Origin: Candidatus Pacearchaeota archaeon
GTDB taxonomy: Archaea > Nanobdellota > Nanobdellia > Pacearchaeales > UBA284
Length of the DNA stretch: 64,000 bases
Direction: 5' to 3'
NCBI GenBank assembly: GCA_026016245.1
Contig: CP061211.1
Coordinates: forward strand, 29,449 to 93,448
A model generated the notes under the pieces. It was not told where the DNA came from and did no database searches. It saw nothing but the letters and a program-made list of their open reading frames with translations. The position numbers and the translations under genes were made by a program. Positions 1 through 52,499 of this stretch are shown here, one piece after another; the stretch's first letter is position 1, and each line of letters starts with the position of its first letter.

Positions 1-1
1 T

Positions 2-2233
2 TTTGCTGAAGAAGAAATACCACCAACAGAATGTAAAATTATAGATGCAGATGTTAAGACATATTGTGGAACTGAAGGATGTGATAATGGAGACAAAGTT
101 GAATTGAATATAACAGTAGAAGATATGAGTAAGTGTGAGGCATTAAATGTCAATAAAATGCAAATAGATGCTTTTTCAGATGCGCAATCACAACCAACAG
201 GCATGGTTATTGGTGGAGGAGCTTTATGTAATGTTTATATGGTTAATTCAAGTGTAATAAAACAAGGTGATACTTATTTAGGAAATTGGACTGTTATAGT
301 TCCTCAAGGCTGTCAAGGAGAAACTGTAGATGCGAATATAGCAAAAGTTTTCAATAATACTGGACAAATAGCACAAAAATTTGGAAATTTCGGATCTTTT
401 GATTTTGTTGATGAACCTACAAACTGGTATGTACTTGAAGATATTAGTGTTTCACCTTCAGTTTTTGTTTTGAATATTACTGACACACAACAACTTGAAG
501 TTATTGCATTAATGAAATGGGTAAAAAACAATAGCTTCTTTACTTTGGATGTAACCCAACAAGCAGATTATATTTCAAATGATACTAGCGTTGCTTCTGT
601 TTCAGCACTCGGCTTAGTTACTGGAATTGGAGATGGGACAGGAAAAATAACTGCAGAATACACACATTCTGAGGTCACAAAAGAAGACTCTAGTATTGTT
701 AATGTCAGATATTTTGAAGATGATTATATTAGATATATTAATCTGGCTTTAAATAAATATGAAATTGAAATAAATGAAGAAACAAGTTATGAAGTTAAGG
801 CTTATTGGTCTAATGGTCTGACAACTGATATAACTTCTGAATCAGATGTTCAGAGTTTAAATCCAAATGTTGCTTCTGTAAATCAAAATACTCATAGAGT
901 TAAGGGAGAGGATGAAGGAATAGCCATCATAAATGCTAGCTATATTCATAATAATCTTCCTTATGGAGATGAAAAATTTATAATTGTTACTGGAGAAGCA
1001 GTTGGAGAATATAATCTTTCAGTTGACACATGTGGAGATACATCTATTCCACCAGATGGAGATTGTGAAGATTTTATTAATGTGAAAGGTGAAATAACTG
1101 TTAATCAAGAATCTTGGGGCATTGCACCACAAGAAAGATTCCCACTTCCTTCAGATAATTATAGAGTTTCTTTTGGTCCTCTTCAGGATTGGTATGAACC
1201 TGGGGAGATGTCAGTATTTTTGCCTCCAAATGTTTCTTTGATGGGTATTTATACTAAAGAGCCTGTGGAGTATGCTCTAATAATTGTCCAAGCTAAAGAT
1301 GAACAGACAGGACAATTTATCAATGCTTTAATTAACTTATATCTTGAAGATGATCTTGTTAATTCTACTATAAATGATGTGAGATATAATTATTCAGAGA
1401 CATATCCTATTGAATTCACAGCTGAATTTGAAGACCAAAGTGGTTACATTACACCATCTAATTTAACAATAACAATTTATGGAAATGGAATTTATTTCTT
1501 TACAGTTTATTATGAAAAAGAAGCAGTTGGAGAATGTTTCTGTGAACCAAAGCATGTTCCTTGTGGTTTTTGTTATGATTTTTATTCTGAATGTGATGGC
1601 CCTCCACAAGGACCTGGACAAATAATTCCTTGTTCACCTGGTTGGATATGTAATTATGTGACAGGAAAATGTCAACCAACTTCAACCCAAGATGAGTGTC
1701 ATGATAATGCTACTACTTGTAATATTATCACTGGTTGTTATTGGGATTATCCAGACATCCCTCCTCCTTATTGTAAACATTGCCAAACAGAAGGTCCTGA
1801 AACATGTTCAGGTTATGATAATCAGGGAACTTGTAATTTAGATCCTTGTGTTGTCAAGAATGTTGGTTGTCCTTCTGGTGCTAGTGACTGTAGATGTGAA
1901 TGGGAAACTGATGAATGTATTCTTAAATATCAACAACAAACAAATGGAGATTTTTGTGAGATAACTTTAAGACAGGGGACTTGTGAAGAAGGTTGCCAAG
2001 GAAAAATAAATTATAGATGGCAAAATTATACTTGTGATCCTGGTTCATGTTCAGAACAAGCTTGCGTGGATTTAACCTATCCTCCCCCAGATTATACAAA
2101 ATCAGAATGTGTGATTTGTCCGACACCTTTTAGAGAGCTTCCATTTTTTTCATGGTGGAATATTTTAGCTGTTGTGTCTGTATTGATAGTGTTTTATATA
2201 TTCATGCTTAGAAAAAAGAGAATTAATTATTAA
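2..2233 (+). CDS. Large surface protein, 5'-truncated at the window edge. It has a Big_2-like domain, a Cys-rich C-terminal region and a C-terminal TM anchor.
   Basis: The frame is open from nt 2 (FAEEEIPPTECK...) into the 104 ORF. A Big_2-like motif is present (SVASVSALGLVTGIGDGTGKITAEY). There are many N-x-S/T sequons. Near the C-terminus there is a dense Cys cluster followed by a hydrophobic helix, WWNILAVVSVLIVFYIF, and then RKKR. Confidence 0.6.
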   Translation, partial: FAEEEIPPTECKIIDADVKTYCGTEGCDNGDKVELNITVEDMSKCEALNVNKMQIDAFSDAQSQPTGMVIGGGALCNVYMVNSSVIKQGDTYLGNWTVIVPQGCQGETVDANIAKVFNNTGQIAQKFGNFGSFDFVDEPTNWYVLEDISVSPSVFVLNITDTQQLEVIALMKWVKNNSFFTLDVTQQADYISNDTSVASVSALGLVTGIGDGTGKITAEYTHSEVTKEDSSIVNVRYFEDDYIRYINLALNKYEIEINEETSYEVKAYWSNGLTTDITSESDVQSLNPNVASVNQNTHRVKGEDEGIAIINASYIHNNLPYGDEKFIIVTGEAVGEYNLSVDTCGDTSIPPDGDCEDFINVKGEITVNQESWGIAPQERFPLPSDNYRVSFGPLQDWYEPGEMSVFLPPNVSLMGIYTKEPVEYALIIVQAKDEQTGQFINALINLYLEDDLVNSTINDVRYNYSETYPIEFTAEFEDQSGYITPSNLTITIYGNGIYFFTVYYEKEAVGECFCEPKHVPCGFCYDFYSECDGPPQGPGQIIPCSPGWICNYVTGKCQPTSTQDECHDNATTCNIITGCYWDYPDIPPPYCKHCQTEGPETCSGYDNQGTCNLDPCVVKNVGCPSGASDCRCEWETDECILKYQQQTNGDFCEITLRQGTCEEGCQGKINYRWQNYTCDPGSCSEQACVDLTYPPPDYTKSECVICPTPFRELPFFSWWNILAVVSVLIVFYIFMLRKKRINY

Positions 2234-2263
2234 ATTATTTTTTCCTGGTAAAAAAGAGGTGAA

Positions 2264-4942
2264 ATGATAAAAAAAGAAGGAGTGATTTTAGTATTAGTAT
2301 TTTTTATTTTATGTTGTTCTTTTAGTTCTGCTTCTGTTATTCCTGGAAATCCTTTTTTTAATTTAAGTCAAGGAAGTTTTGGTCCAGGCCAAGTTCTTGA
2401 GGGTTATTTTAACTTTTCTTTGGAAAATGAACCTGGTAATATTATGGTTAGCGGGCAAGTTGCTGCTGAGATGAAAGAGATGAATCTTCTTGATTTTTTA
2501 CAAGAAGGAGAAGTAGATTTTAATTGTGATCCTAGTGATTGTGATGTTACTTACCAGGCATCGATTCCTTCCCAAACAAAGACAGTAGTTCTTAGTGAAG
2601 AAGAGAAGTATTTTGGTTTAGTTGCTTTTGGTACTAATCCCCAGATTTTGAACTTAAGTTTTTATCTTACTGGACAAAGCACTGCTAATCCTATTTGTGG
2701 TGAATCTCCTTTGAAAATTGATTTGCTTGATGATGGCATTATAGATTATGAATATAAAGAGCCAAGTGGAGAATGGTGTTCTGATTTAAGACATAGTAGA
2801 TGTTATGATCCTTCTATTGCTACTGGTGTTTCTGTTTTAACTTCTACTCCTCTTTGCCAGAAAATTTCTCTGAATAAGACAGGAAGGTTAGAAGTTGCTG
2901 CTGAACTTAAAGTGTATAGTGGTGAACCTTGGGATTATGATATAGAATTTACTGTTTATGATTTAGGTGGTAGTTTAATTGGAAACTGCAGTGTTGATTA
3001 TTTTTATGAATTAGAATATAGTTTTGCAAAATGTTTTATAGGTCCTGAATTTCTAGGAGAGGAATCAACATTCTTTATTGAAGAAGCAGGTGATTATCTT
3101 CTTTGTATCAGGAATAAGGGAACAAGTAGTGCAGAATATTGGATTAAAAAAGAAACTCAAGAAGAGGTTTGTGGTTTTTATGGAGAGCCGCCTTCACAGA
3201 CTTATAATGAGGATTATTCTATTTATGTTCATGAAGCTAAATTTAATGCTTTTACTGAGGAAGTTGTTTTTGATGAGAGCATGCATCTTGGTGATGTTCC
3301 TTTAATGACTTATGTCCAGAATTATATTAATTCAGAATATGGAGGTAATTGTACTGGATTTAGTGGTTGTATTATTCCTATAAAATTTATTTCATCAGCT
3401 AGCCAGACTTTGACATTGAGTGATATCAACTTCAAATATCACCCACAAGGCACTTCTCCAACTTATAATAATTATTTTTATGATTTGATTGTTGAGTGGC
3501 CTAAAATTGATATGGATATACAGACAGTTCCATTCTCTATTCTTAATCTTAGTGCGCCTGAACAGCCAGGTTTCCAGATGGTTTTAGCTAAGATTGGAAT
3601 AGCTTCGAGAAGTCTTGGTTTTGATGTTGCAGAAGTCCCAACAATCCAAAGTGTTAGTCCTCTTATTGTAATTCCAGGAAAGCTAACAGAATTTAGGACT
3701 GTTGCTACTGCTCCAGCTGGCAAACAGATTATTCAATATAGATGGGATTTTGGTGATGGTTCAGGAGAGCAAATGACAGCTGGGCCTAATATAACACATA
3801 CATACAGCCAGATAAAAACATATATTTTAACTGTCAAGGCTCAAGATACTTCTGGTTTGGTTGGTTCAAGAACTTTTACTATTACCAGCAATATAACCCG
3901 CGAACTTTTGAATACTACAATACAGAATTTAAGAATAAGATTGGATAATTTTGCTTCTCAGTACAATAATATTGAATATTGGTACAGAGATATGATTGGA
4001 GTGAATGTTACAATAATAAGCACAACCCTTGATGTTTTAGAATCTCAATTAGCTACAGCAACCCAAACACAGCTTCTTGATATTAAAAATGAACTTGATG
4101 CTTTGAATGTTCCAATATCTATAAATGATACTTTGGTTTTGAGAGATTCTCCTTATATTCCAAATTTAAATGAAATAGATCCAAGTTATGTTAGTGATAT
4201 GACAGGAGAGGATTATGATTCAAATCTCAAAACAGAATATCAGAATGCTGTGGCTTTATGGCAGCAGGATAATGTTAATTTGAGATTAGGAGGAGAGGCA
4301 AAAGCTTTATTTTATGAAGATAGAATAGAAGATAAGATTACAGTTGTTAATATAAAAGTTGATCCTCTTGTTGGTATTTCTAATGCTTATGTTATTTTCT
4401 CCTTGCCTTATGGTGTTAGTTACAATGATGTCAGATTACTGCATGATGCATATGAAGTAAGTGATTTAAATGATGCTATTGGCTTTGTCTATACTGGCTT
4501 AAGTGGCTTGGAAACAATTAGTATAACATTGCCAGGCAAGGTTGATTTTTCAGATATTAATTTTTATATCTCACCTTCTCTTCAGGAAGTACAAGTAGGA
4601 GTACAACCTCTGACAGAGCCACCAAAGAAACCACCCTATCTTCTAGCAATATTTTTAATAATTGTTATTGCGATAGTTGTCCTTATTATCTTATGGTTTA
4701 TATGGAAAGGCTCTGGGAAAAGAGAGAAAAAGAAGCTGTTCAAGAATCCTATGGATCTTTATCATATTACTAATTTTATTTCTAACAATCAAGCTGCTGG
4801 AGTTCCAAAAAACAAGATAATAGAGAGGCTGAAAAAAGCTGGTTGGTCAAAAAAACAAATAGATCATGCTTTTAAACAAATTGGAAAACAGAAACCAATT
4901 TTTACACCTTCAGTGAAAAGAAGACCCACAAGAAGAATTTAA
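2264..4942 (+). CDS. Secreted surface protein with a PKD domain and a C-terminal TM anchor
   Basis: Signal peptide MIKKEGVILVLVFFILCCSFSSA. PKD-like motif (YRWDFGDGSGEQMTAGPNITHTYSQ...). C-terminal TM helix LLAIFLIIVIAIVVLIILWFIW followed by a basic tail. An AAGAGGTGA Shine-Dalgarno motif precedes the ATG. Confidence 0.6.
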   Translation: MIKKEGVILVLVFFILCCSFSSASVIPGNPFFNLSQGSFGPGQVLEGYFNFSLENEPGNIMVSGQVAAEMKEMNLLDFLQEGEVDFNCDPSDCDVTYQASIPSQTKTVVLSEEEKYFGLVAFGTNPQILNLSFYLTGQSTANPICGESPLKIDLLDDGIIDYEYKEPSGEWCSDLRHSRCYDPSIATGVSVLTSTPLCQKISLNKTGRLEVAAELKVYSGEPWDYDIEFTVYDLGGSLIGNCSVDYFYELEYSFAKCFIGPEFLGEESTFFIEEAGDYLLCIRNKGTSSAEYWIKKETQEEVCGFYGEPPSQTYNEDYSIYVHEAKFNAFTEEVVFDESMHLGDVPLMTYVQNYINSEYGGNCTGFSGCIIPIKFISSASQTLTLSDINFKYHPQGTSPTYNNYFYDLIVEWPKIDMDIQTVPFSILNLSAPEQPGFQMVLAKIGIASRSLGFDVAEVPTIQSVSPLIVIPGKLTEFRTVATAPAGKQIIQYRWDFGDGSGEQMTAGPNITHTYSQIKTYILTVKAQDTSGLVGSRTFTITSNITRELLNTTIQNLRIRLDNFASQYNNIEYWYRDMIGVNVTIISTTLDVLESQLATATQTQLLDIKNELDALNVPISINDTLVLRDSPYIPNLNEIDPSYVSDMTGEDYDSNLKTEYQNAVALWQQDNVNLRLGGEAKALFYEDRIEDKITVVNIKVDPLVGISNAYVIFSLPYGVSYNDVRLLHDAYEVSDLNDAIGFVYTGLSGLETISITLPGKVDFSDINFYISPSLQEVQVGVQPLTEPPKKPPYLLAIFLIIVIAIVVLIILWFIWKGSGKREKKKLFKNPMDLYHITNFISNNQAAGVPKNKIIERLKKAGWSKKQIDHAFKQIGKQKPIFTPSVKRRPTRRI

Positions 4943-4947
4943 TTTTA

Positions 4948-7212
4948 TTAAGAAGGTTTAGGAGCTGGAGGCAAAGGTTTTGGTTTTCTTACTGGTTTTA
5001 TTGGCATTGGTTTTGGCTTTATAGGTCTGGCTATTGGTTTTGCAGGCATTCTTACTGGCCTTGCTGGAGCTCTTCCTGGTGGCATTCTTCTTACAGGCCT
5101 AGATGGCATCATTCCAGGAAACTCCAATTTGGGTTTGGCTGGTTTTGCTTTCTTCCTTTTTTTAATGGATAGGAATATTAAAACACCTAATCCTAAGACT
5201 AAGAAAATGATGAGAGTTGTTAGCCATGGGAACACACTTGGTTTTTTACATTTCCCTAAACAACATCTGCTTGTATCAGAAGCTTCAACAATTGTTCCGT
5301 CACAAGCAAGGCTAGCATTACAGGCAGTTCCTCCTAAAGACGAACATGAACTTAAACAGCTTCCATCAACACAACATCTCGTAGCCTCACTTGTCTCATA
5401 CATTGTTCCAGAACAAATCTGTCCAGCTTCACAAGAAACACCAGGACAGGTTTTTGGAATACATTTCCCTCCTTGGATACAACAAGTTTGTTGGCCACCA
5501 GTATTAGCAGCCTCCACTAAAGTTCCGTCTTTACAATCCTCGTCACTAGCACAAATCTCACCACCCATTACAGCGCAGGTTTGAGAACCTGTACAAAAAC
5601 CTGATTCACAGCAATAATTTGTATCAGAAGCAACAATCCATCTGTCTGAAGGACATGATTTTCCTTGACTAGGATCACAAATCTCTCCTCCAAGATCAAA
5701 ACAAGTATCACTTGCTGTTGTGCAAACCCCTTTACAACAATAAGGAGTGTCAGCTGATACAATGAATGGAATTATATTACCAAGATTATCCAAACATTTC
5801 TGTCCAGAGCCGCAAATCTGGCCACCTATCTCATTAATACACATTGATTTATCATAAGGTTTACAACATTTCAATCCTGGCTCACAGATATAAGGAACTT
5901 CAGTTTCATTGTCAGAACAAGAACTTTTACAAGAACCATATTTATCTTCACATGACTGGGCAATATCACAACATTCACGATCTCCAAAACAAGCATAAGG
6001 TTGAGATATGCCACCACTATTACTGCAATTGATAACACAACTATATCCATATTGCTCACATTCAGAAAGTAATTCTAGAGTCGGCCAAACTCCAAGAAGA
6101 ATTAAAGCTGTATCACGAACATTATCGCAAGCTGATCCAGAACATTCCCAGCTTCCATCTTGTTTTTGTTCTTCTAATAATGTTTCTTTTGTCTTTTCAA
6201 TATCTCCTGCCATGGCTTGGGTCATTAATACAACAAGAGCAGTATCATAATATTTGTTAGAAGAACCTTGTCCAAGCCATAATCCATCAGCTCTTTGTAA
6301 TGCTATTAGTTCTGAAATAAAACTTTGTTTTTTTGTTATTTCATAAAGGAAAGGTTGAGGCATATATTGCAGATTTTCATCATAATTTATTACAAGGTAA
6401 GGCATAAATGTTTTTGCTGTATTTATTTTTCCTTGCTTCATGAATGCATAAGCTGTCCATAAACTTGCTTCATAATCACATGATCCAAGAGTTGTGATAC
6501 AAGAAGAATTCAAACCTATAGAAAGAAGTCCCTGAGGGCCAGCTTCTTCATACAAGCCAGGAACATACCAATCATTTTCTTTCTTGAATAAAAAATTAGC
6601 TATAACACTTTCATTACAACTGACATTGAAAATTTTATCAGAACATTCTGGACTAAGACTTAACCAATAATTTTCAGCTATTGTAAAACAAGATCCTGGA
6701 TTGCCTCCTAATTTGTCTTCTTTATCAATACTAATTTCATAATCAGTATTATCATAGAACAAAAGACAGCGGGCAGGAACATTGTTGGTTGTTAATTGCA
6801 AATACCAATCAATTCCAGTAGGCATGGCTGTCTTGTTTAATAGCCATTCATTTGCTTTTTCTGTGTCTTCTCCTATTGCATCAAGGGCAAGTTTTGCAAG
6901 AGCTGTATCTTTTGTTTTACAGTTTGGAGAAGGCCAGCATGTCTCATTTTCAAAGCTCTTGTCAATCAACTTTATTTTTGATGCTTTGGTTTGTGCAAGA
7001 CTCATTTCATCTCGTAAAACAAGTAATGAGAAAACATGTTGTTCTATATTGAGATTTTGCCATCTTCCAATAGCTTTATTTTTTAACCAGAGATAAGCTC
7101 TTTTAATTTGTATTTTTTCTTGTTCTTGCTGAGCAGAGATTAAAAAAGAGCATAAAAAAAGTATTAGAATAAATACTATAAATAATAGAGCAAAGCCTCT
7201 TTTCTTATTCAT
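4948..7212 (-). CDS. Secreted modular surface protein. Its parts are a signal peptide, alpha/alpha-toroid-like repeats, tandem Cys-rich modules, a TM helix, and a Pro/Lys-rich cytoplasmic tail.
   Basis: The N-terminal signal is MNKKRGFALLFIVFILILFLCSF. The QRADGLWLGQ...DGSWECSG segment resembles terpenoid-cyclase or thioester-type repeats. The repeated Cys-rich modules include GGEICDPSQGKSC, GGEICASDEDCKDG and GGTACNASLACDG. A TM helix, LTTLIIFLVLGLGVLIFLSI, is followed by the tail KPKPMPIKPVRKPKPLPPAPKPS. Confidence 0.55.
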   Translation of the reverse strand: MNKKRGFALLFIVFILILFLCSFLISAQQEQEKIQIKRAYLWLKNKAIGRWQNLNIEQHVFSLLVLRDEMSLAQTKASKIKLIDKSFENETCWPSPNCKTKDTALAKLALDAIGEDTEKANEWLLNKTAMPTGIDWYLQLTTNNVPARCLLFYDNTDYEISIDKEDKLGGNPGSCFTIAENYWLSLSPECSDKIFNVSCNESVIANFLFKKENDWYVPGLYEEAGPQGLLSIGLNSSCITTLGSCDYEASLWTAYAFMKQGKINTAKTFMPYLVINYDENLQYMPQPFLYEITKKQSFISELIALQRADGLWLGQGSSNKYYDTALVVLMTQAMAGDIEKTKETLLEEQKQDGSWECSGSACDNVRDTALILLGVWPTLELLSECEQYGYSCVINCSNSGGISQPYACFGDRECCDIAQSCEDKYGSCKSSCSDNETEVPYICEPGLKCCKPYDKSMCINEIGGQICGSGQKCLDNLGNIIPFIVSADTPYCCKGVCTTASDTCFDLGGEICDPSQGKSCPSDRWIVASDTNYCCESGFCTGSQTCAVMGGEICASDEDCKDGTLVEAANTGGQQTCCIQGGKCIPKTCPGVSCEAGQICSGTMYETSEATRCCVDGSCLSSCSSLGGTACNASLACDGTIVEASDTSRCCLGKCKKPSVFPWLTTLIIFLVLGLGVLIFLSIKKRKKAKPAKPKLEFPGMMPSRPVRRMPPGRAPARPVRMPAKPIARPIKPKPMPIKPVRKPKPLPPAPKPS

Positions 7213-7257
7213 AGTTCTCTAAGCATTTTAATATTTAAAAAACTTTTTAAATGTCAG

Positions 7258-8052
7258 ATGATACTAAGAAATATGGATAGAGATAAAAGAGGACAGGTAA
7301 CTCTTTTTATTATAATTGCTATTGTTATTGTGGCTGTTGTGATTCTAGCTATTGTTCTTGTCCCACAACTTCTTCCTAGAGAAAGAATTCCCCCAACAGT
7401 ACTTGATCCAGAAGCTTATATTGCTGATTGCGTTAACTTACATTTAGAACCATTAGTTGAGGTACTTGCAAGTCAAGGAGGCTATTTGGAAACAGGAAAT
7501 TGTATTTTTTATGAAGATATCTGCAGGCATTATTTATGTTATACTACTACTCCTTATATTAATTGCACTAATCAAGAACCTTTACTTAAAGAGCATGTTG
7601 AAGAAGAATTAAAAACTAAGCTGCAACAAGAAAATGTGGTTAAAAATTGTATTTCTAGTTTTGCTGAAGCTGCAAGAAAACAGAATTGGAATGTTGAAGC
7701 ATGCTCTGTTCCAAAATTTTCAGTTAATTTGACAGAAGGCAGGATTAATATCCCTATAGAGTGTGATATAACAATGTCTAAAGGACAGGAAGTTAAAAAA
7801 TTTGAAGAACTTAATCCTTTTTTAAAATGGCCTTTGTTTGAATTTGTTATACTTAGTAAAGAAATTATTAATGAAGAAATAGAAAATTGTGATTTTGATC
7901 CCTTAGCTTATATGACTATGCATTATCAGATTGAGATTGAGAAATTTAGAACAGGCGATGGAAGTAAGATTTATATACTTCGGGAAAGAGAAACTGGAAA
8001 AGAATTTGTATTTGCTGTAAGAAATTGTGTGTTACCAGGAGGGGTATTTTAG
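7258..8052 (+). CDS. Small membrane-anchored, Cys-containing hypothetical protein
   Basis: N-terminal TM helix LFIIIAIVIVAVVILAIVLV. No recognisable catalytic motif. Confidence 0.4.
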   Translation: MILRNMDRDKRGQVTLFIIIAIVIVAVVILAIVLVPQLLPRERIPPTVLDPEAYIADCVNLHLEPLVEVLASQGGYLETGNCIFYEDICRHYLCYTTTPYINCTNQEPLLKEHVEEELKTKLQQENVVKNCISSFAEAARKQNWNVEACSVPKFSVNLTEGRINIPIECDITMSKGQEVKKFEELNPFLKWPLFEFVILSKEIINEEIENCDFDPLAYMTMHYQIEIEKFRTGDGSKIYILRERETGKEFVFAVRNCVLPGGVF

Positions 8053-8053
8053 A

Positions 8054-11000
8054 ATGCCAAACAGGAAAAACAAAGGTGATATGGCAATAGCATTATTCCT
8101 TTCATTTTTGGCAGTAATGATGCCAGTGACCTTTACATCATTACAACCAGAATTTACAGAAGAAGGAATAAAACAAAATTCTATCATTGAAACTTTCTCA
8201 GAAATAGTCTTATTTTTTGATCTAATTCCAAGTGTAGCTGCTTCTGATTATTTTGGATGCTGTGAAGAAACAAAAAATAAAGCTAAATGTGTTATAACTC
8301 TTGAGAATGAATGTAAGGTTAATAAATGGCATAATGGAACAGCTTGTGATACTGTATGCCAGATAGGTTGTTGTATAGATAATGAAGGAATGTGTATTAA
8401 AAATTCTATAAATACAGATTGTCAACTTGGAACTTTTATTGTTAAGGATCCAAGTTGTGAACAGAGTCCTTTATGCAAGGAAGGTTGTTGTACAATTGGT
8501 TATCAAAAAAGATGGACAACAAATTTAACTTGTGTTAATGTTTATAATGGTGTTTGGGATAGTGCTGTTCCTGATTGGTTGACTTGTATTAAACAAGCTT
8601 ATGAAGAACAGCATGGATGTTGTAAAAGTTATGCTGGTTGTGAGTATATTACAGGACAAGAATGCCAGGGCAAATCAGGATATTTTTTCTCAAATATGAA
8701 GTGCTATGAGAATATTCCTGGCTGCGAGATTTGTCAATTACAGCCTACTGAAGGAAAATGTATAGAAGGTTTTCCTGATTTATACAAGACAGATAGTTGT
8801 GGGAATGTTTATAGTGATGAAATTAAAAAATATTGTACTGGTGGTTTTTGTAATCCTGAGACAAATCAATGTGAATCTGGAGATTGTTTTAATATCTACA
8901 AAAATTATGTTGGTGGAGAATTTGGGCCTAAAGAATCTTCAGACAAAGCAAAAAGTGGTGAGGCTTGGTGTGTTTATGATACTCTTAGTGACTTAGGTAA
9001 TGGAACAGCACCTGTAGGTTCACGACACTGGAGACGTTATTGTTTATATGGGCAAGAATATAATGAGCCTTGTGCAGATTACAGACAAGAAGTTTGTATG
9101 GGTTTTGGAGAAGGAGGGCAAGCAGAATATGCCAACTGTGCTCCAAATGGATGGAGACTATGTGCTAATGTTACATCAAAAAATGAATGTAATGAGAATC
9201 CTTTCTGTTTCTGGTGGACAGATTTTGGTGAACAACATGAAGACCTAGGTCTTGGTAGCGGATTGAAAGATGCAATTGATAAAGTAGGTAATGATAAATG
9301 GCGTATTTTTGCTGAAGAAAAAATAGAATCTGGAAAAAGTAAAAGAGAGAAAGGAGACCCACAAATTTGTTTACCTAAAATACCTCCAGGCTATAGTGAA
9401 CTTAATCAAGAGCTTGGTTGTGTTGGAGCTGGAAGTTCTATGTGTGTTTATGAAGAAGCTTGGTGGGGTTTAGATACAGAAAATAAAGAATGTCGTGATG
9501 ATGAATGGCGTATTACATCTGCACACACATGTAGAAGTGTAGGAGATTGTGGAACTTGGTTTAATTGGGTTGGAGAGCCTATGTCTGGTTTTAGGATCAT
9601 AGAAGTTGAAGAAGGAGATGTAGAAAGAGAGAAAAAAGAAATAATGATACCACAAGCATATACTGATTTTGTTTCAGAACATATTAAAGGAGTAAAGGGA
9701 GCTGGTGGCTTAGGCCTCTTGAATATTTTTGCAGCTGCTTTTGTAGTTTGGGCTGGAGGTTATTTAGGAGTTGCAGTTTTAGATCTAGTTGGTGTAGACG
9801 TTTTTTTCAGTGGTGTACCTTGGGCAATGTTTAGTGTCAGTAAAGGATCATTAACTACAGCAGGTATAGTGGTTGGATGGTCTATTATAGCTACTGGAGT
9901 GATCTTAATTTTATGGTCTTTTTGGATTTCACCAGGAGCAAAACAAGGAGCAATGCAATCAATTGGTGCTGGCCTTATTTCAGGAGGTGCTGCTGCTTTA
10001 GCAGGATTAACTGCTGTTCCTGCTGTACTTGTTGGCATTGTAATTGCTGGAATTGCTGCTCTTTTATACTGGTTAGGTTATAGTAAGGAATTTTATTATC
10101 AACAATGTAATCCTTCAATGCCTCCTCTTAATGGAAATGACTGTCATCTTTGTAATGAAGATTCTGAAAGGCCTTGTTCTAAGTATAGATGTGAGAGTCT
10201 AGGAGCTGCCTGTTCATATAATGATACTATAACTGTTGGTGGTAAAACATACCAGCTTGCAGATTCTGAATGTATAGCAACAATAAATGATGGTGCTCCT
10301 CCTTGGATTACTGAAATAGAGGCTTTTGACATGGAAGGAAGGAGTATCTTCAAAAGAACAGGATTAGGAACAATGCCTACAACCATCAATATTAATATGG
10401 GCGGCCAACCTATTCCTGATGGCACGCAACTTGTAATACAAATAAACTTGAATGAAAAAGCATTTTGTATGTGGGATATTGAAAGCACAGCCAACATTGG
10501 AGAGATGGACTTCCCTTATCAAAGTTCTGTATTGCGGGATGAGCTAAGACAGCAATTCCTAGTGAAACAGGCTCTGCCACAATATTATGTAAGATGTGCT
10601 GATGTTTATGGCAATGCGAACATTGCAGAATACATTTTCAAATTTTCAACTACAACAGGACCAGATTTAACACCACCAGTTATTTTAGGTACAGATAGAG
10701 ATTATAATCCTTATTTTGGATATAGTGTTACTGAGCTTCCTTTATCTATTTATATTAGTGAAGATGCTTTTTGTCGTTGGAACCCAGGACAGGACACTGA
10801 TTATGAATTAATGTCACAAGAAACAGAATGTGAAACAGATATCACACCGACTGGATGGGAATGTGAAACAACCCTCACTGGCTTGCAGCCAGATATTGCA
10901 AATCCTTTCTATATAAGATGTAAAGACAAAAGTCCTCAAGAAAATGTTATGCCTAGCGGTTACCTTCTTACATTACTTCCTACACCGCCTTTATTAATCA

Positions 11001-11557
11001 CTTCAATTGATCCAACAGATGGTTCTATAATTAAAGGATGCGAAGTTTCTGGTGTAGAACTTGAAGTTACAACTGCTGAAGGAGCAGATAATGGAATAGC
11101 TACTTGTTATTGGTCTAATGCTGATATTGGCATTGAACAAGGAATGACTAAATTTACTGAAACTAATACTGTTATTCATAGACAGAACCTTTCTGCTATG
11201 AGCCAGATTGTTTACATCAAATGTCATGATTCTGCTTTAAATATAGCAAATAATAGGACAAGCTTTACTGTAATTGTTGATACTTTCCCACCAAAAATAA
11301 CTCGTCTTTACAAATCTGGTGGAAGTCTTATTTTAAAGACAGATGAGAATGCTGTTTGTGCATATCACTATAGTGCTGGCAGAAAAATACATAATTGTAA
11401 TTTTGATCCTAAGGATACTCTCAGAGCAAGAAGGTTTGATACCACAGGAACTAAAGAACATAGAGTTTATGATGATGGAGAGCCTTGGCATGTAATATGT
11501 TATGATGAGTGTGATAATATTGGACAGTGTTTCGTAATATCTTCAATAGAATCTTAA
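8054..11557 (+). CDS. Giant Cys-rich surface protein with a central multi-TM block
   Basis: Start moved to MPNRKNKG (ATG 8054), which has a GGAGGGG SD 8 nt upstream and follows the upstream TAG stop. The N-terminal 500 aa are Cys-rich. Four to six hydrophobic helices span aa 540-680. A large C-terminal domain follows. Confidence 0.5.
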   Translation: MPNRKNKGDMAIALFLSFLAVMMPVTFTSLQPEFTEEGIKQNSIIETFSEIVLFFDLIPSVAASDYFGCCEETKNKAKCVITLENECKVNKWHNGTACDTVCQIGCCIDNEGMCIKNSINTDCQLGTFIVKDPSCEQSPLCKEGCCTIGYQKRWTTNLTCVNVYNGVWDSAVPDWLTCIKQAYEEQHGCCKSYAGCEYITGQECQGKSGYFFSNMKCYENIPGCEICQLQPTEGKCIEGFPDLYKTDSCGNVYSDEIKKYCTGGFCNPETNQCESGDCFNIYKNYVGGEFGPKESSDKAKSGEAWCVYDTLSDLGNGTAPVGSRHWRRYCLYGQEYNEPCADYRQEVCMGFGEGGQAEYANCAPNGWRLCANVTSKNECNENPFCFWWTDFGEQHEDLGLGSGLKDAIDKVGNDKWRIFAEEKIESGKSKREKGDPQICLPKIPPGYSELNQELGCVGAGSSMCVYEEAWWGLDTENKECRDDEWRITSAHTCRSVGDCGTWFNWVGEPMSGFRIIEVEEGDVEREKKEIMIPQAYTDFVSEHIKGVKGAGGLGLLNIFAAAFVVWAGGYLGVAVLDLVGVDVFFSGVPWAMFSVSKGSLTTAGIVVGWSIIATGVILILWSFWISPGAKQGAMQSIGAGLISGGAAALAGLTAVPAVLVGIVIAGIAALLYWLGYSKEFYYQQCNPSMPPLNGNDCHLCNEDSERPCSKYRCESLGAACSYNDTITVGGKTYQLADSECIATINDGAPPWITEIEAFDMEGRSIFKRTGLGTMPTTININMGGQPIPDGTQLVIQINLNEKAFCMWDIESTANIGEMDFPYQSSVLRDELRQQFLVKQALPQYYVRCADVYGNANIAEYIFKFSTTTGPDLTPPVILGTDRDYNPYFGYSVTELPLSIYISEDAFCRWNPGQDTDYELMSQETECETDITPTGWECETTLTGLQPDIANPFYIRCKDKSPQENVMPSGYLLTLLPTPPLLITSIDPTDGSIIKGCEVSGVELEVTTAEGADNGIATCYWSNADIGIEQGMTKFTETNTVIHRQNLSAMSQIVYIKCHDSALNIANNRTSFTVIVDTFPPKITRLYKSGGSLILKTDENAVCAYHYSAGRKIHNCNFDPKDTLRARRFDTTGTKEHRVYDDGEPWHVICYDECDNIGQCFVISSIES

Positions 11558-11558
11558 A

Positions 11559-12377
11559 ATGAAAATGAAAAAAAGAAAAGCAGGAAAAAAGAAAAATATT
11601 TTTGATATTATTGGTATGAGTTTTAGAAAGTGGTGGTATAATTTTATTATTGTCTTGCCTTTTGTTTTTAATGCTGTTGCTTCTATTATTGGTATTCTTA
11701 TTTTATTTTTAATCTTTGGTTTGCTTTTTATGGTAATTTTTGGTTTATCTCCTTTGGGTTTATTAGGAGATTTAGTTCTTTTAGGACAACTAGAAGGAGT
11801 AATTCCTGATTTTTCACCAGGAATTCTTATTTATCTTGCTCTTGTTTTCATTGTGATGATTTTAGTTCTTGAATTAATTAAGGCGTATTTCTATAGTGGT
11901 GGGATTGCCATGGCTTCTGAGATAGTTAGAGGAAAGAAAACAAGTTTAAGAGTTATGGATAAGAATGGATGGAAATTTTTATGGCGTTTTTGGATTATTG
12001 AGATTATTATTGCTCTTGGTGTTATTATCTGGTTATTTATTTTCGCACTGCCTTTTATTTTTACTCAAGACATATCCTTATTATCTATAATGGGTATAAG
12101 TGTCATACCTATGATGTTTGTTTATGTATTTTTCATTCTAGTTGAGTATTTTCTTGTTCTTGAAGATTTAAGTGTGTGGAAATCTTTTGAAAGAGGCATT
12201 TCTATAGTAAAAACTAATTATTGGGCAATGCTCGGTTTAGGTGTTTTATTTTTATTGATGACAGGTCTTGCTAGTTTTATTCCTTGGATTGGTGGTATCG
12301 CAAGTTTGATAATTTTTATTCCTTGCCAGACAATTGCTTTTGTTATTTTTGCTCTTAAGCGTGCATATCGACGGTAA
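11559..12377 (+). CDS. Polytopic integral membrane protein
   Basis: At least six hydrophobic helices. The start overlaps the TAA stop of the upstream giant protein (TAAAATG). Confidence 0.45.
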   Translation: MKMKKRKAGKKKNIFDIIGMSFRKWWYNFIIVLPFVFNAVASIIGILILFLIFGLLFMVIFGLSPLGLLGDLVLLGQLEGVIPDFSPGILIYLALVFIVMILVLELIKAYFYSGGIAMASEIVRGKKTSLRVMDKNGWKFLWRFWIIEIIIALGVIIWLFIFALPFIFTQDISLLSIMGISVIPMMFVYVFFILVEYFLVLEDLSVWKSFERGISIVKTNYWAMLGLGVLFLLMTGLASFIPWIGGIASLIIFIPCQTIAFVIFALKRAYRR

Positions 12378-13094: not shown

Positions 13095-13104
13095 GAAGAA
13101 AAAA

Positions 13105-13521: not shown

Positions 13522-13539
13522 TAAAAATAATAATTAAAA

Positions 13540-32632: not shown

Positions 32633-32665
32633 ACAGTAAGAATTATTTTATGATTTTAAAAAGTT

Positions 32666-33499
32666 TTATGTTAACAGAGCTCTTGCTGCGGTAACAACTA
32701 GATAAGTGAATATGAGTAGTATTGCGCTGTGTTTGATACCATAATGTATTGATCCTTGGCTTAACTTGCCTATAACTAAGCCAGCAAACAAGGCTTGGAC
32801 AAGTAGTAAGATAAAGAATGATCTTTCAATTATCTCTGTTGAAATTCCTCCACCAACAGAGATGCCAAGACCAGTTGTTTGAATTTCTGTTCCTGTTAAT
32901 GCCCCAGCAATGAGGGGCATGAATTTTAATTCAACAAAAAGCATGATAACAACAAAGATAAAGAAAATTATATAACCTTGAACAACCATGCTATAAACTC
33001 TTGCCATTCTCTCCTTTTTTAAGTCCTCTATTTCATTAACACTTTTTACAACAGCATCTAGGACAGAGCCTATCTCCCCTCCAGAAGTTTCAGCCTCAAT
33101 AATTAATTCTACAGAACGTGAGATAACTTTATTCTTGATGTCAGATGCAAAAGTCCTTAGTGCTTGTTTGACAGGAATAGCTATCTTGATCTGATTTGCT
33201 AATTTCTGAATATGAGGGGTAAGACTACTATAGTCTTTTGATGCCACATTTATTATGCTCCTTGATATTGGTGCACCTACTCTAACACTTTCAACTAGAT
33301 TACGAGCAAACTCAAGGAACATCTCTTCCTTTTCTTTTTCACGTCCTGTTTCTGTTATAAAGGAGATAAGGAAAGGCAAGACAGCTATAACTATTGCTAT
33401 GCCAAGAAGAAAGTAAAAAAGGCTTTTGAGGAAGATAAGGCTAAGTACAACTATCAAGATTGATGTTATGATTGCGATTACTTGTATTTTTTTAGGCAT
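32666..33499 (-). CDS. Type II secretion F-domain membrane protein, the C-terminal half of a FlaJ/TadC-like platform
   Basis: Polytopic, with a T2SSF-like cytoplasmic domain. Adjacent to a second T2SSF-like gene and the ATPase. Confidence 0.55.
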   Translation of the reverse strand: MPKKIQVIAIITSILIVVLSLIFLKSLFYFLLGIAIVIAVLPFLISFITETGREKEKEEMFLEFARNLVESVRVGAPISRSIINVASKDYSSLTPHIQKLANQIKIAIPVKQALRTFASDIKNKVISRSVELIIEAETSGGEIGSVLDAVVKSVNEIEDLKKERMARVYSMVVQGYIIFFIFVVIMLFVELKFMPLIAGALTGTEIQTTGLGISVGGGISTEIIERSFFILLLVQALFAGLVIGKLSQGSIHYGIKHSAILLIFTYLVVTAARALLT

Positions 33500-33505
33500 T
33501 TTATT

Positions 33506-34783
33506 TTAAATTTCTGGTTGTGTTAAATGTAAAAATATGAGGAAAATGATGTTGAGTAGGGCTATGGCAACTATCCCTACATTAGCAAGTGTTGAGGCAG
33601 GCATTCCTATGAAGCTTGTGCCTATGATTGAGATTATTGCTAAGAGGAGCATGAATATAAGTGGAGCTGCAATAAGCAAGGCAGTATAAATATCAGAATA
33701 CATACCTATAATATTTGAGTATCTTTCATGGCTAAGTTTATAGTCAAGAAGACTATTTTTTGCTTTCTCATTTAAATAAATAGTTAGATTGCCTCCTGTA
33801 GTGATTGTGGTGGCCATTCCATTGAGCAAGTCAGCAAATTTTCTGCTTGATGTTTGTCTTGATACATTTTTTAAAGCAGTTGTTAAATCATAGCCAAAAA
33901 CATTAATCTGATTCACTATTTTTTTCATTTCTGTACTAAAGGCCTTATATTCTTTTGTTAGAGCCATTATTGAAAAAATTCTTGAAGGTTCTACTTTGCT
34001 AGAAGCTATGGCTGCCATATGAGATGTTGCAAAAGGAAGTTCAGAATCTACCTTCTTCCCATGAGAAGATGCTGTGTTTGACGGCCAGCTTAGTGTGAGG
34101 AAAAATATTATAGCTGTTAAAGCAATAACTATGGCAAAATTTCTTATGGCTGTGCTAAGAGAAGTTGTAAAGAAAAGAGCAATTACAAGAATTATAATAA
34201 AGGATAGTAGAGTTAAGAATAATATTATAGAAATATAGCTGCTGAGAGTGTAGGGCATGTTAGCTTTTCTCAGATCTTTCCCTATACTTTTGAAGAATGG
34301 TTTTTTAGAAAGTTTTTTTGAAGTGTTGTAAAAAATCTTATTTGCAAATGAAGCCAGGGCAGAAGGTCTTGCTATTATTTCCTCAGTTATCTCAGGTTTT
34401 TTCTTCAGAATTTTTTTTCTGACTTTTCTGAGGGCTTTTTTTTCTATTCCCAAGTCTTCTAAAAATTTTTCCTTACTTTCTTTTGTGATATAAACTGGGC
34501 CTGACACTGTTGTTATTCTTTCATATTTTTTTCTTTTTGCAGATGGCCTTTTTACTGGTTTTGCTTTTTCAACCACTATGCTTTCAACAAGAGCTCCAAT
34601 TGGTTCATTAATTAGCTGAAGTTGATTAATCAGAGCCATGGCTGATTTTTCTATCATTACTTTTTCTTCACCTCTGGCAATATTATAAGAAGCAGATAAA
34701 GCATACAATTCACGTACTATCTTTTCTGATCTGCTGATATTAGATTTTATTGATCCCAGAGCTTCTTCTAGTATAGACACCAT
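33506..34783 (-). CDS. Type II secretion F-domain membrane protein, the N-terminal half of a FlaJ/TadC-like platform
   Basis: T2SSF-like segment and multiple TM helices. Confidence 0.55.
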   Translation of the reverse strand: MVSILEEALGSIKSNISRSEKIVRELYALSASYNIARGEEKVMIEKSAMALINQLQLINEPIGALVESIVVEKAKPVKRPSAKRKKYERITTVSGPVYITKESKEKFLEDLGIEKKALRKVRKKILKKKPEITEEIIARPSALASFANKIFYNTSKKLSKKPFFKSIGKDLRKANMPYTLSSYISIILFLTLLSFIIILVIALFFTTSLSTAIRNFAIVIALTAIIFFLTLSWPSNTASSHGKKVDSELPFATSHMAAIASSKVEPSRIFSIMALTKEYKAFSTEMKKIVNQINVFGYDLTTALKNVSRQTSSRKFADLLNGMATTITTGGNLTIYLNEKAKNSLLDYKLSHERYSNIIGMYSDIYTALLIAAPLIFMLLLAIISIIGTSFIGMPASTLANVGIVAIALLNIIFLIFLHLTQPEI

Positions 34784-34787
34784 TTTC

Positions 34788-34979
34788 CTATTTTACTCTC
34801 CTTATTTTTAATTCAGATAGATTTTTTTTGATATTTCTGTTGAGAGTAATAATATCTTTTTTTATCTCCTCAACTTTTTTCTCATCACCAACTTTTAGAG
34901 CCTGCTCGAGAGCTATGGTAGATTCTTTTGATGATAAAATCAATTGCATTAGAGAAGCTATTTTATCGCTTGATATCAT
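34788..34979 (-). CDS. Small coiled-coil protein between the ATPase and the platform
   Basis: 63-aa ORF tightly packed within the operon. Confidence 0.3.
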   Translation of the reverse strand: MISSDKIASLMQLILSSKESTIALEQALKVGDEKKVEEIKKDIITLNRNIKKNLSELKIRRVK

Positions 34980-34986
34980 TTTTTAT

Positions 34987-36564
34987 TTATTTTAATCTTT
35001 TTGCTTCTTCTGGCACATATTTTGAAAGCACAGCTTTTGGATTCTTATAGTATTCATTGATCATTTTCTGTACTGTTGAAAAATCATAAATTCTCTTTTT
35101 ATACAAGGCAAAGAGCAGTTTTGTTCTGATTTTGAATTCTCTAAGAATCTGTTCTTTTGAAAGTCCATAACGTTTTTGTATTTTCTCAAAAACTTTACTT
35201 TCTGTTTTAAAATAAAAAGAATCTTCAGATGGATTCCACATGAAAGGTGTATTTGTAAGGGCAATGCCTTCTGCTGTAACATCAACTACTTCAATAACTT
35301 CCCTCAGACGTCTTGTTTCTTCTTTATCAACCAAAGCATGAGTCATTACAGCTACAGCATCTAGACTGTTTACAAGAGTTGGGCTAAGATTTATTGGTGG
35401 TGTTTCTAATCTTCTTATCACTGTTTCTACAGAATCAGCGTGCATTGTACTAAGTGATGGATGGCCTGCTGCCATTGCCTGGAATAAGACAAAAGCCTCT
35501 TTACCTCTGACCTCACCAACAATGACATAATCAGGATTTTGCCTGAAACTTTCTTTAAGCAAAGTAAACATATCTATCTCTCCTGCTCCTGCAAGTCCTG
35601 CTCTGGCTACGCTTGGGAGCCAGTTTTCTCTTGGCAAATTAATCTCCCTAGTGTCCTCAACAGAAACAACTCTTGCTTCAGGTGGAATAAAGAAAGCTAG
35701 AGCATTCAACATAGAGGTTTTCCCTGAACCTGTCCCTCCTGTTATTAAGATATTTGCTTTGTACTGCATAAGAATCCAGAAATAAGCCAGCATTTCCGGA
35801 CTTAATGTGTTCATAGAAATAAGCTGTATAGGTGTCCAAGGAACTTTAGTGAATTTTCTTATTGTGAAAGTTGGCCCTCTACTTGTTATTTCAGTTGTGT
35901 ATGTGGCATTTACTCTAGAACCATCAGGAAGTGTTCCATCAAGCAAGGGAGTGGCATAAGAAATGTAACGTCCACATCTTTGAGCAAGTTTTTCAACAAA
36001 ACTTGCAAGCTCTTTTATATTTTTATAAGTAAGATTTGTTTTCATATTTCTGTAAAGTCTGTGAACTATGTAGACAGGTGTATTAACCCCATTACACTCT
36101 ATATCCTCAATGAAAAAATCTCTAAGCAGGGGTTCAGTTTCATTAAGGCCAATAAAATCACGGTAAAGATAATAAAAAATTCTTGAATAGGATTCTTCAC
36201 TTAATGTTCTTCCTAGCTCATTTAGAATAAGCTTGGCCATCTTGTCAATATAAGATAAAAGAGCTTCTTGTGTTTTTTCTATTACTGCTCCAAGATTAAT
36301 CAATTCGAGCATTCCTGATTCTATCTCTTCTAAAGTCTTTTTTTCAAATTCATTTAATATGGGCTCTTCTACTTCATAAATCAGTTCAGAAGATTTTTTA
36401 TTCCAGTATATATGTGCTGTTGCATGAGGTGCAATTAAGATGTAGCGAATATTTATCTTTGTCTTGTCCTCCACTCTCCTTAAAACAGGAATTTCTGGAT
36501 TAATATTGATTACAGGATGCTCTGGTTTTGGTGGTGAAGGGATTTCTGGAACTGGCAAAGCCAT
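34987..36564 (-). CDS. Secretion ATPase of the FlaI/TadA/VirB11 family, the type IV pilus or archaellum assembly motor
   Basis: Walker A GGTGSGKTS. Downstream Asp box, Walker B and His box. Confidence 0.8.
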   Translation of the reverse strand: MALPVPEIPSPPKPEHPVININPEIPVLRRVEDKTKINIRYILIAPHATAHIYWNKKSSELIYEVEEPILNEFEKKTLEEIESGMLELINLGAVIEKTQEALLSYIDKMAKLILNELGRTLSEESYSRIFYYLYRDFIGLNETEPLLRDFFIEDIECNGVNTPVYIVHRLYRNMKTNLTYKNIKELASFVEKLAQRCGRYISYATPLLDGTLPDGSRVNATYTTEITSRGPTFTIRKFTKVPWTPIQLISMNTLSPEMLAYFWILMQYKANILITGGTGSGKTSMLNALAFFIPPEARVVSVEDTREINLPRENWLPSVARAGLAGAGEIDMFTLLKESFRQNPDYVIVGEVRGKEAFVLFQAMAAGHPSLSTMHADSVETVIRRLETPPINLSPTLVNSLDAVAVMTHALVDKEETRRLREVIEVVDVTAEGIALTNTPFMWNPSEDSFYFKTESKVFEKIQKRYGLSKEQILREFKIRTKLLFALYKKRIYDFSTVQKMINEYYKNPKAVLSKYVPEEAKRLK

Positions 36565-52350: not shown

Positions 52351-52499
52351 GGGCCCGTAGCTCAGCCTGGTTTAGAGCACTACGCTGATAGCCTTACTAC
52401 AGCCTCTTAAAGGGGGTGATGGAACTGGAGCGCTTTGCGTTCCACTGTAGTTTGGTTCTAGAAACGTAGGGGTCATGGGTTCGAATCCCATCGGGCCCA
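52351..52499 (+). tRNA. tRNA-Ile(GAU) with a 73-nt intron at 37/38
   Basis: Acceptor stem GGGCCCG/CGGGCCC. Anticodon stem CUACG/CGUAG. Anticodon GAT at 52387-52389. Intron 52391-52463. T arm GGGTT... TTCGAAT. Confidence 0.75.

Follow-up and report, generated by a model that had tools for sequence, protein, structure and literature searches.

The subject of this analysis is a window of 64,000 nucleotides from a Candidatus Pacearchaeota metagenome-assembled genome (MAG; GenBank assembly GCA_026016245.1, contig CP061211.1, positions 29,449 to 93,448 of the forward strand), and within it the region 1-12377, where six open reading frames (ORFs), labelled g1 to g6, encode secreted or membrane proteins. 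An earlier note on this DNA had taken the region as an island of giant, Cys-rich surface glycoproteins that might mediate attachment to a host or partner. The real unit is narrower and deeper: a pair of genes, g4 and g5, with g3 as a loosely linked neighbour, that extends across Pacearchaeota, Woesearchaeota and Nanoarchaeota. In the MAGs of these lineages g4, which encodes a small protein with a single N-terminal helix, is genetically coupled to g5, which encodes a large Cys-rich protein, and g5 unites in one gene a secreted head and a membrane-anchored stalk. No description of this g4-g5 module, of its fission and fusion or of the pilin-like gene cluster that goes with it was found in the literature searched on Cys-rich surface proteins and class III signals of DPANN archaea and on attachment in Woese- and Pacearchaeales. 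With a probability of about 40%, g4 and g5 form an envelope complex that is held by pilin-type helices, is probably linked to type-IV-filament (T4F) machinery and serves adhesion or contact.

The coupling emerges from a g4-profile scan of the GTDB species genomes, which yielded at least 309 g4-encoding stretches; 79 loci were retrieved (loci are cited below as L001 and so on), labelled as Pace-, Woese- or Nanoarchaeota or as generic archaeal MAGs, with three odd labels that are probably mis-binned. When hidden Markov models of the g4 and g5 families were run over the six-frame ORFs of all loci, with a partner defined as lying on the same strand at -150 to +1000 nt, a g5-like gene directly followed the g4-like gene in 119 of 123 testable cases in contigs of the three lineages. 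The partner was a full-length fused g5 (1040-1390 aa) in 47 cases and an N-terminal half, g5N, in 68. The latter consists of a Sec signal and the Cys-rich domain (profile positions ~40-525), has no anchor of its own and is followed, where the contig continues, by the C-terminal half, g5C (profile positions 1-30 and 610-1195), whose N-terminal helix is pilin-like and is followed by Gly-rich hydrophobic segments, a CxxC knot and four immunoglobulin (Ig)-like domains. A common layout is the tandem duplication g4a-g5(fused)-g4b-g5N-g5C, seen in L002, L004, L006 and many of L014-L087 (for example L004 9239-18983); the window's clade keeps only the first g4-g5 module at the locus, and the module is present in every related locus examined. 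Given that g5 occurs both fused and split, the head and the stalk are likely to work together, and given that the order with g4 first is constant, g4 is likely to belong to the g5 assembly. In the window itself, g4 (7258..8052, plus strand) encodes 264 aa, or 259 aa from an ATG at 7273, and g5 (8054..11557, plus strand) encodes 1167 aa in the NCBI model, or 1176 aa from a GTG at 8027; the gaps between g4 and g5 and between g5 and g6 are 1 nt each.

The g4 protein is built of a short basic leader (MDRDKRG or MILRNMDRDKRG, depending on the start), the stretch K-R-G-Q-V-T-L-F-I-I-I-A-I-V-I-V-A at nt 7285-7335 and an alpha/beta domain of ~215 aa. Across the family the N-terminus reads K-[KR]-G-Q-[VIM]-T-[LI]-F-I-I-[IL]-A-I, with K10 followed by [KR] and then [GA]; Q13 is invariant, and K10, T15, F17, I18 and A21 are conserved at 90% or more. 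The leader fits the description of those recognized by EppA, which are short (5-13 aa), positively charged and terminated by Gly or Ala, and it precedes Gln at +1, T at +3 and a hydrophobic stretch of more than 20 residues; the position at +5 holds a near-invariant Phe, not Glu. Described substrates of EppA combine a leader of that length, closed by Gly, with Gln at +1 and Glu at +5, a Glu that is missing from the pilins of Sulfolobus and Haloferax (PMC3875500). Elsewhere in g4 the near-invariant polar residues are K175, E207 and a QGGY motif. An AlphaFold model from 52 sequences (predicted local distance difference test, pLDDT, 93; predicted template modelling score 0.82) places a transmembrane (TM) helix before the alpha/beta domain, and the model has no Foldseek match in PDB at E<=1e-3. 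The family is large: clustering at 50% identity leaves 8,783 representatives with E<=1e-3, of which 5,912 reach E<=1e-10, and lengths among the 150 best representatives are mostly 250-270 aa; the g4 profile found no relatives in the IMG/VR viral contigs. A distant paralogue in the same genome, IB618_02155 (L088 10001-11774 together with the next gene), has the identical KRGQVTLFIIIAIVIVA N-terminus and is followed, 1 nt on, by an unrelated 343-aa protein with a Sec signal and low Cys content. Because this paralogue precedes an unrelated secreted protein, proteins of the g4 type may be adaptors for differing secreted partners.

The g5 protein begins with a helix and continues with a Cys-rich ectodomain (nt 8252-9613, residues ~67-520), Gly-rich TM segments (nt 9614-10093) and then a CxxC-rich knot with four Ig-like domains (nt 10094-11554), each of which has a conserved Cys pair. 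Conservation at 90% or more holds for 55 of 64 Cys residues, and for 36 of 43 in the Cys-rich N-terminal domain; the central hydrophobic stretch, Gly/Ala-rich and amounting to about four helices, is poorly conserved (mean column conservation 0.26). Foldseek searches of the g5 model (pLDDT 76) against PDB and BFVD returned only generic Ig/FN3 arrays among the 50 best matches, which mask the N-terminal Cys-rich domain, and Pfam scans of g5 and 36 homologues detected Big_13, Y_Y_Y and DUF4625 in some members. A match of influenza B neuraminidase to a g5 Ig-like domain (E 0.002) was taken as spurious. At the N-terminus, g5 homologues vary between plain Sec signals (...VSA followed by CC) and KRA or KKAG followed by xSYxE, with Glu at +5 in several. 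Neither g4 nor g5 received an assignment from Pfam, NCBIfam or PDB sequences, and g3 received only a sub-threshold one to an alpha/alpha-toroid. Of the fold searches that the earlier note had proposed as a check, that of g4 gave no PDB match and that of g5 generic arrays alone.

Clustering of the ORFs from 84 non-redundant loci identified the recurrent neighbours of g4-g5 as PCNA-like (50 loci), primase-like (41), g3 (36) and a 419-aa protein (23). In 21 loci, moreover, four small pilin-like families whose N-termini combine K[KR][GA]Q with a hydrophobic stretch stand directly after the split g5C, and in L004, L005 and L006 an S_layer_C gene is next after these four. Because the module is duplicated in most Woese- and Pacearchaeota and then followed by four small pilin-like genes, it may represent a T4F-associated surface assembly. 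The window has a T4F assembly locus at 32666..36564 on the minus strand, comprising one T2SSE ATPase with a PilB3_C tail and two T2SSF platform proteins. This 'system 1' or Epd-like layout, of an ATPase and two platform genes, is that reported for the Epd pili of Methanococcus maripaludis (PMC3875500) and of the DPANN 'system 1' (bioRxiv 10.64898/2026.04.22.720090). The locus is candidate machinery for proteins with class III signals such as g4. No K[GA]Q pilins lie beside it in the window; a small ORF that adjoins it (32291-32647, minus strand; 118 aa, N-terminal hydrophobic helix) could be a pilin.

In the mechanism proposed, the functional core of the locus would be an obligate complex of g4 and g5 in the cell envelope. 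The very conserved helix of g4, which resembles EppA-type class III (prepilin) signals, would hold the small alpha/beta protein in the membrane, and g4 would dock the Cys-rich head and retain it there, while g5 would unite the secreted Cys-rich head (g5N) with the membrane-anchored stalk (g5C). With its toroid and Cys-repeat stalk, g3 would be a third conserved envelope component, and g1 (beta-helix/Big_2) and g2 (PKD) would be clade-specific, adhesin-like additions, g1 being the fastest-evolving. The role would likely be adhesion or cell-cell contact. We infer the physical complex, the signal cleavage, the link to T4F machinery and the adhesion; the points in favor are the coupling, the fission and fusion of g5, the N-terminus of g4 together with the Glu at +5 of several g5 homologues, the pilin-like neighbours, the T4F genes of the window, the degree of conservation, the second g4 paralogue with its unrelated secreted partner, which fits a role of g4 as anchor or adaptor, and the adhesin-type Ig/FN3, Big_2 and PKD modules. 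Attachment to a host, which the earlier note had considered, may likewise be inferred.

A good deal weighs against this account. The T4F machinery lies 21 kb from g4-g5 in the window, no prepilin peptidase (Peptidase_A24) was seen among the window ORFs scanned, and T4F assembly genes occur neither in five fully annotated distant loci nor among the commonest neighbour families; the four K[GA]Q pilin-like families are themselves absent from the window. For g4, no pilin or class III signal profile appears among Pfam matches at E<=0.1 for the protein or E<=0.01 for 52 family members, or in NCBIfam, and PDB searches with g4, including one with its N-terminal 41 aa, gave only non-significant matches to the N-termini of archaellin (E 0.38) and PilA (E 2.4); the predicted N-terminal helix is broken after residue 38, and the near-invariant Phe at +5 is also unfavorable. 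As for g5, position -1 in the window's clade is neither G nor A, and the central cluster of about four hydrophobic helices would block extraction into a filament; in hand topology analysis, basic residues after the last TM segment in some homologues would even favor a cytoplasmic C-terminus.

Two known systems offer instructive parallels, neither of them complete. In bacteria, the fimU-pilVWXY1E operon encodes minor pilins together with the large adhesin PilY1. Likewise, 21 of the related loci encode about four small pilin-like genes with a protein of ~1100-1200 aa that bears adhesin-type domains. However, g5 and 36 homologues have no Pfam match to the PilC/PilY1 beta-propeller or to vWA, so that no homology is apparent; g5 has TM and Cys-rich/Ig-like domains instead, g4 has no counterpart in the operon, and the window lacks the four pilin-like genes. 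The EppA/Epd-type class III signal proteins of M. maripaludis (DUF361) resemble g4 in their basic leader with a terminal Gly, in Gln at +1, in a residue with a hydroxyl group at +3 and in a long hydrophobic helix, and in that system, too, some pilin-like proteins are large and pilin genes are scattered away from the locus of the ATPase and two platform proteins, as in the window (PMC3875500; bioRxiv 10.64898/2026.04.22.720090). In contrast to them, g4 has Phe at +5, no profile match, a broken predicted helix and an unmatched 215-aa alpha/beta fold, and is almost always paired with a Cys-rich partner of ~1200 aa. More broadly, 'Module 98' of Castelle et al. 2021 (PMC8204110) lists in aggregate unannotated, mostly membrane or extracellular families restricted to Pace- and Woesearchaeota. 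In their distribution, g3, g4 and g5 agree with these families.

The setting of the module bears on how it is to be regarded. At least three further contigs of Pacearchaeota, L001, L007 and L008, have the genes in the identical order and orientation, g1-g2-g3(-)-g4-g5; all three share a right flank of GTPase-OapB-OapC-PAC2-ArgRS-MiaB-TrmB, and L007 and L008 have a TP_methylase gene on the left. Identities to L007, L008 and L001 are 73, 73 and 66% for g4, 77, 52 and 44% for g5, 64, 65 and 47% for g3 and 55, 57 and 50% for g2, as compared with 72, 72 and 68% for ArgRS and 72-91, 74-92 and 62-83% for the other housekeeping neighbours. The conservation of g4 and g5 is thus equal to, or somewhat below, that of neighbouring housekeeping genes, with g4 close to ArgRS. 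In more distant genomes g1 and g2 have no tblastn match, and g4 and g5 are still adjacent and co-oriented, often with a gap of 0-1 nt. Of the related loci, L008, L011 and L012 have g6 downstream of g5, and L001 and L007 lack it; like g1 and g2, it is a clade-specific addition. The locus is followed directly (12453-13971, plus strand) by genes for a small GTPase, OapB and OapC, a trio like the origin-associated oapABC that is kept in related genomes; PCNA and primase flank g4-g5 in more distant genomes in its place, and the window ORFs that were scanned include no Orc1/Cdc6.

An island is indicated here by neither composition nor synteny. The G+C content (GC) is 0.32-0.36 across the g1-g6 region, the same as in the remaining window, and neither the ORFs scanned nor the RNA searches showed an integrase or a tRNA flank, so that the term is descriptive only. 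A horizontally acquired island was rejected on the grounds of this non-deviant GC, the housekeeping flanks and the same block and context in L001, L007 and L008. The comparison of loci, which was to reveal hypervariability, instead found a block that is syntenic in at least three contigs and in which only g1 is mosaic.

The third conserved gene, g3 (4948..7212), encodes 754 aa and is read from the minus strand, which is not as the earlier note had described; it converges with g2 and diverges from g4. Between g3 and g4 lies a divergent, A/T-rich intergenic spacer of 45 nt (7213..7257), which on direct reading contains TTTAATATTTAAAAA and is a candidate shared promoter region of the TATA type. 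The g3 protein has a Sec signal, about six Cys-rich repeats of the form C-x-LGG-x-C...CC-x-G-x-C (nt 5263-6075), a TM segment (nt 5155-5241) and a Pro/Lys-rich tail. Its N-terminal region (nt ~6088-7125) weakly resembles the alpha/alpha-toroid of terpene cyclases and prenyltransferases, with two QW-like repeats and profile matches to PDB 6vpt (E 4e-4) and SHC (E 2e-3 in PDB, 5e-5 in Pfam). However, SQHop_cyclase_C scored 22.9 bits against a Pfam gathering cut-off of 26.1, over ~65 residues only, and TIGR01507 scored 22 against 431; neither a DxDD nor a thioester CxEQ motif is present. An identity as a terpene cyclase enzyme was rejected on account of this sub-threshold match and the missing DxDD, and with its extracellular position and its fusion to Cys repeats and a TM segment, the toroid is more likely to be a binding scaffold than an enzyme. 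All 68 homologues of g3 are annotated as 'hypothetical'. By tblastn, 37 of 87 loci have a g3 homologue within 6 kb upstream of g4, mostly in the opposite orientation (by clustering, 36 of 84 loci have one), which makes g3 a widely conserved third neighbour, loosely linked to g4-g5. A kinship of g3 with g5, suggested by BLAST without composition correction (E 9e-5), was rejected and attributed to Cys bias, as profile-profile comparison of the two detected no relationship. The recurrent 419-aa family is secreted and C-terminally anchored, is often found beside g3 in its 23 loci (e.g. L004 3355-4656 and L006 1824-3173, both minus strand) and has in common with g3 the last Cys-rich repeat and TM segment (E 4.6e-12). 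It also weakly matches (E 1.4e-3) a window ORF at 38515-39894 that encodes an NPCBM_assoc/DUF11 surface protein.

The ORF of g1 (2..2233, alternative start 104, plus strand) is open to the window edge and gives at least 743 aa, the C-terminal part of a secreted protein of ~1100 aa whose orthologues have 1100-1158 aa. Besides a Big_2 domain at nt 440-655 (Pfam E 5e-8) it contains another Ig-like domain, and a Cys-rich region (nt ~1559-2116) precedes the TM segment (nt 2138-2218); its only PDB sequence match is to teneurin-like paired Big_2 domains, and the L007 orthologue has an N-terminal NosD/beta-helix domain. As the only mosaic gene of the block, g1 has separate halves that match separate genomes (50, 70 and 26% identity) and is represented by two genes in L008. 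Despite the mosaic remainder, all orthologues have in common the C-terminal R-x-[LM]-P-F-F-x-W, TM segment and RKK (nt 2117-2233), which could be a sorting signal and matches no known model. The type I protein g2 (2264..4942, plus strand, 892 aa) comprises a Sec signal, a domain of ~450 aa of unassigned type, a PKD domain (nt 3638-3886, E 4e-12), to which structure matches in a PDB sequence-profile search are confined, a TM segment (nt 4622-4720) and a 73-aa basic cytoplasmic tail (nt 4721-4939) that is conserved as KKLFKNPMDLY...QL.K.GW.K.QI.YA.KK and is assigned to no family. Its orthologues, 48-57% identical in seven related loci and with one weak match besides, are restricted to the near clade. 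The last gene, g6 (11559..12377, plus strand), encodes a polytopic membrane protein of 272 aa that matches DUF7847 (Pfam E 1e-8). Glycosyltransferase genes elsewhere in the window, namely GT2 with GtrA (Dol-P-sugar synthase-like, 28036-30449, plus strand) and PMT_2 (GT39-like, 31204-32310, minus strand), adjoin a GH3 hydrolase gene and are possible protein-glycosylation genes, relevant to g1 with its many N-x-S/T sequons.

The earlier description of these proteins was confirmed in part, and in some points only for particular members. The six ORFs and their lengths were borne out, as were the Big_2 domain of g1, the PKD domain of g2 and the polytopic protein that follows the array. These are indeed secreted or membrane proteins of a DPANN archaeon that have adhesin-type modules and no characterized function, every source calling them 'hypothetical'; they match, at 100%, the products of IB618_00175, IB618_00180 and IB618_00185, all annotated as hypothetical, on a 710-kb contig of a Candidatus Pacearchaeota MAG. 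Cys richness applies to g1 (4.9%), g3 (7.0%) and g5 (5.5%; binomial P <1e-12 for each) and moderately to g4 (3.8%, P = 9e-4), against 1.1% in the other window ORFs, and not to g2 (1.6%, P = 0.13). An excess of sequons is clear in g1 (15, versus 6.5±2.2 in composition-matched shuffles), weak or marginal in g2 and g3 and absent from g4 and g5. The C-terminal TM anchor with basic tail is a property of g1 to g3, which are type I proteins with a Sec signal; g4 is anchored by its N-terminal helix only and g5 has an N-terminal helix and a central cluster. Given these differing topologies, the notion of a homogeneous array of giant, C-terminally anchored glycoproteins is not supported.

Nor are these known S-layer proteins. 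Like archaeal C-terminally anchored surface glycoproteins and S-layer proteins, g1 to g3 have a Sec signal, large ectodomains with Ig-like modules and a C-terminal TM segment with basic tail, and g1 has the sequons; unlike them, they have no S-layer domain and match no PGF-CTERM/archaeosortase model, and the topologies of g4 and g5 are different. With Pfam and NCBIfam, the six proteins and sets of 52, 36 and 36 members of their families showed just Big_2, PKD, DUF7847, scattered Ig-like domains and the sub-threshold cyclase repeat, and PDB sequence-profile searches with the g3, g4 and g5 families and with g1 and g2 added only PKD, Big_2 and weak toroid matches. No known S-layer or pilin family was among these matches, and Sec-type signals are present on g2, g3 and g1 orthologues. 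The identity of an S-layer protein was rejected, since g1 to g5 match no S-layer family in Pfam or NCBIfam and related genomes encode a separate S_layer_C protein, as was that of an archaeosortase substrate, since g1 to g3 match no CTERM sorting-signal model in NCBIfam.

The two main rival readings do without a filament. A doubtful reading, but one with several facts on its side, is that g3, g4 and g5 are housekeeping proteins of the wall or membrane skeleton, such as S-layer spacers or anchors in very small cells, which act independently of T4F, and that the g4 N-terminus is an uncleaved signal anchor that packs on the TM segments of g5. It would account for the near-universality and constant length of g4 (5,912 representatives at E<=1e-10, mostly 250-270 aa), for conservation on a par with ArgRS and MiaB and for the setting among core replication and translation genes (PCNA, primase, oapABC-like, ArgRS), and it sits well with the S_layer_C gene nearby in three distant loci, the polytopic nature of g5 and a g4 that lacks both a pilin profile match and Glu at +5. 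Yet the conservation of the g4 helix, with its invariant Q and with T, F, I and A at 90% or more, far exceeds that of the g5 TM region (0.26) on which it would pack, the set of four K[GA]Q pilin-like genes is found repeatedly just after g4-g5, and some g5 N-termini are canonical, with E at +5. The other reading, quite an unlikely one, makes g4 the dedicated maturation factor, chaperone or membrane tether of any secreted protein whose gene comes next (g5, g5N or another), with no filament and with g5 as an autonomous Cys-rich receptor or binding protein; it leaves the pilin-like N-termini of g5C and the four pilin-like neighbours unexplained. No enzyme or chaperone fold or motif was recognized in g4 either. 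The proposal does accommodate the paralogue IB618_02155, which has the same N-terminal motif and precedes an unrelated 343-aa protein with a Sec signal, the lack of any anchor on g5N, a g4 fold that has no Foldseek match in PDB, and K175, E207 and QGGY, which could form a binding or active site; it overlaps the proposed pilin-type complex and does not exclude it.

A view along the lines of the earlier note, in which giant glycosylated adhesins make up a hypervariable island that turns over fast between strains and determines specificity for a host or partner, is improbable. It is largely refuted for g2 to g5 and survives only for g1, which is mosaic between close genomes, represented by two genes in L008 and rich in sequons (15 versus 6.5 expected); the beta-helix, Big_2 and PKD domains are typical adhesin modules, and the window does have glycosyltransferase genes. 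Against it, L001, L007 and L008 preserve the order and orientation of g1 to g5 amid the same housekeeping genes, the identities of g2 to g5 (44-77%) are not far under those of neighbouring genes, GC is not deviant, g4 and g5 have no sequon enrichment, g2 is not Cys-rich, and g3, g4 and g5 are conserved across Pace-, Woese- and Nanoarchaeota MAGs. More improbable by far is a device for membrane fusion or a cytoplasmic bridge in which g5 would be a Cys-rich fusogen. The idea derives from the Gly/Ala-rich, hydrophobic and poorly conserved central segment, which lies between disulfide-type Cys-rich ectodomains and would enter the host membrane. However, that region is predicted as ordinary TM helices, and a viral-type fusogen was rejected because the 50 best Foldseek matches in PDB and BFVD comprised only Ig/FN3 arrays, with no fusexins and no fusion proteins of class I, II or III, and because a scan of IMG/VR viral contigs with the g4 profile gave no relatives. 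The pilin-type complex of g4 and g5 might, in a bolder and rather doubtful form, amount to an undescribed envelope organelle specific to Pace-, Woese- and Nanoarchaeota: a T4F-dependent contact apparatus made from g4, g5, their split or duplicated forms and the four pilin-like genes, in which a giant disulfide-rich head on an Ig-like stalk, mounted through a pilin-like adaptor of new fold, would let these ultra-small archaea grip partner cells.

Several other features of the window merit mention. The archaeal assignment is matched by two intron-containing tRNAs and by archaeal housekeeping genes; the tRNA genes stand in tandem at 52151-52284 and 52351-52499 (plus strand; 134 and 149 nt, presumably intron-containing), and Rfam detects both and ARAGORN none. 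A gene for a PAS-GGDEF diguanylate cyclase lies at 42958-43863 (plus strand; GGDEF E 3e-48), with a local GC of 0.30, like its neighbours. Because cyclic di-GMP signalling is not known to be established in archaea, this gene in a Pacearchaeota contig may be a bacterial acquisition. A LigD-type Prim-Pol protein gene (45775-46653, minus strand) overlaps one for a calcineurin-like metallophosphoesterase (44918-45799, minus strand), and the two may constitute a repair module.

Among the archaea not yet cultured, Pacearchaeota and Woesearchaeota are abundant lineages with tiny genomes. For the study of how they build their envelope and make contact with partner cells, defined targets now take the place of a vague array of surface proteins: a module of two genes, or of three where g5 is split, whose fusion and fission predict the parts that interact. 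If the proposal of a contact device is true, the module would provide markers and antigens with which to visualize or enrich these cells, and it would represent a new accessory class of archaeal type IV filament systems. If the proteins are only a scaffold, they would still be among the largest unannotated envelope families of the lineage and worthy of definition as families.

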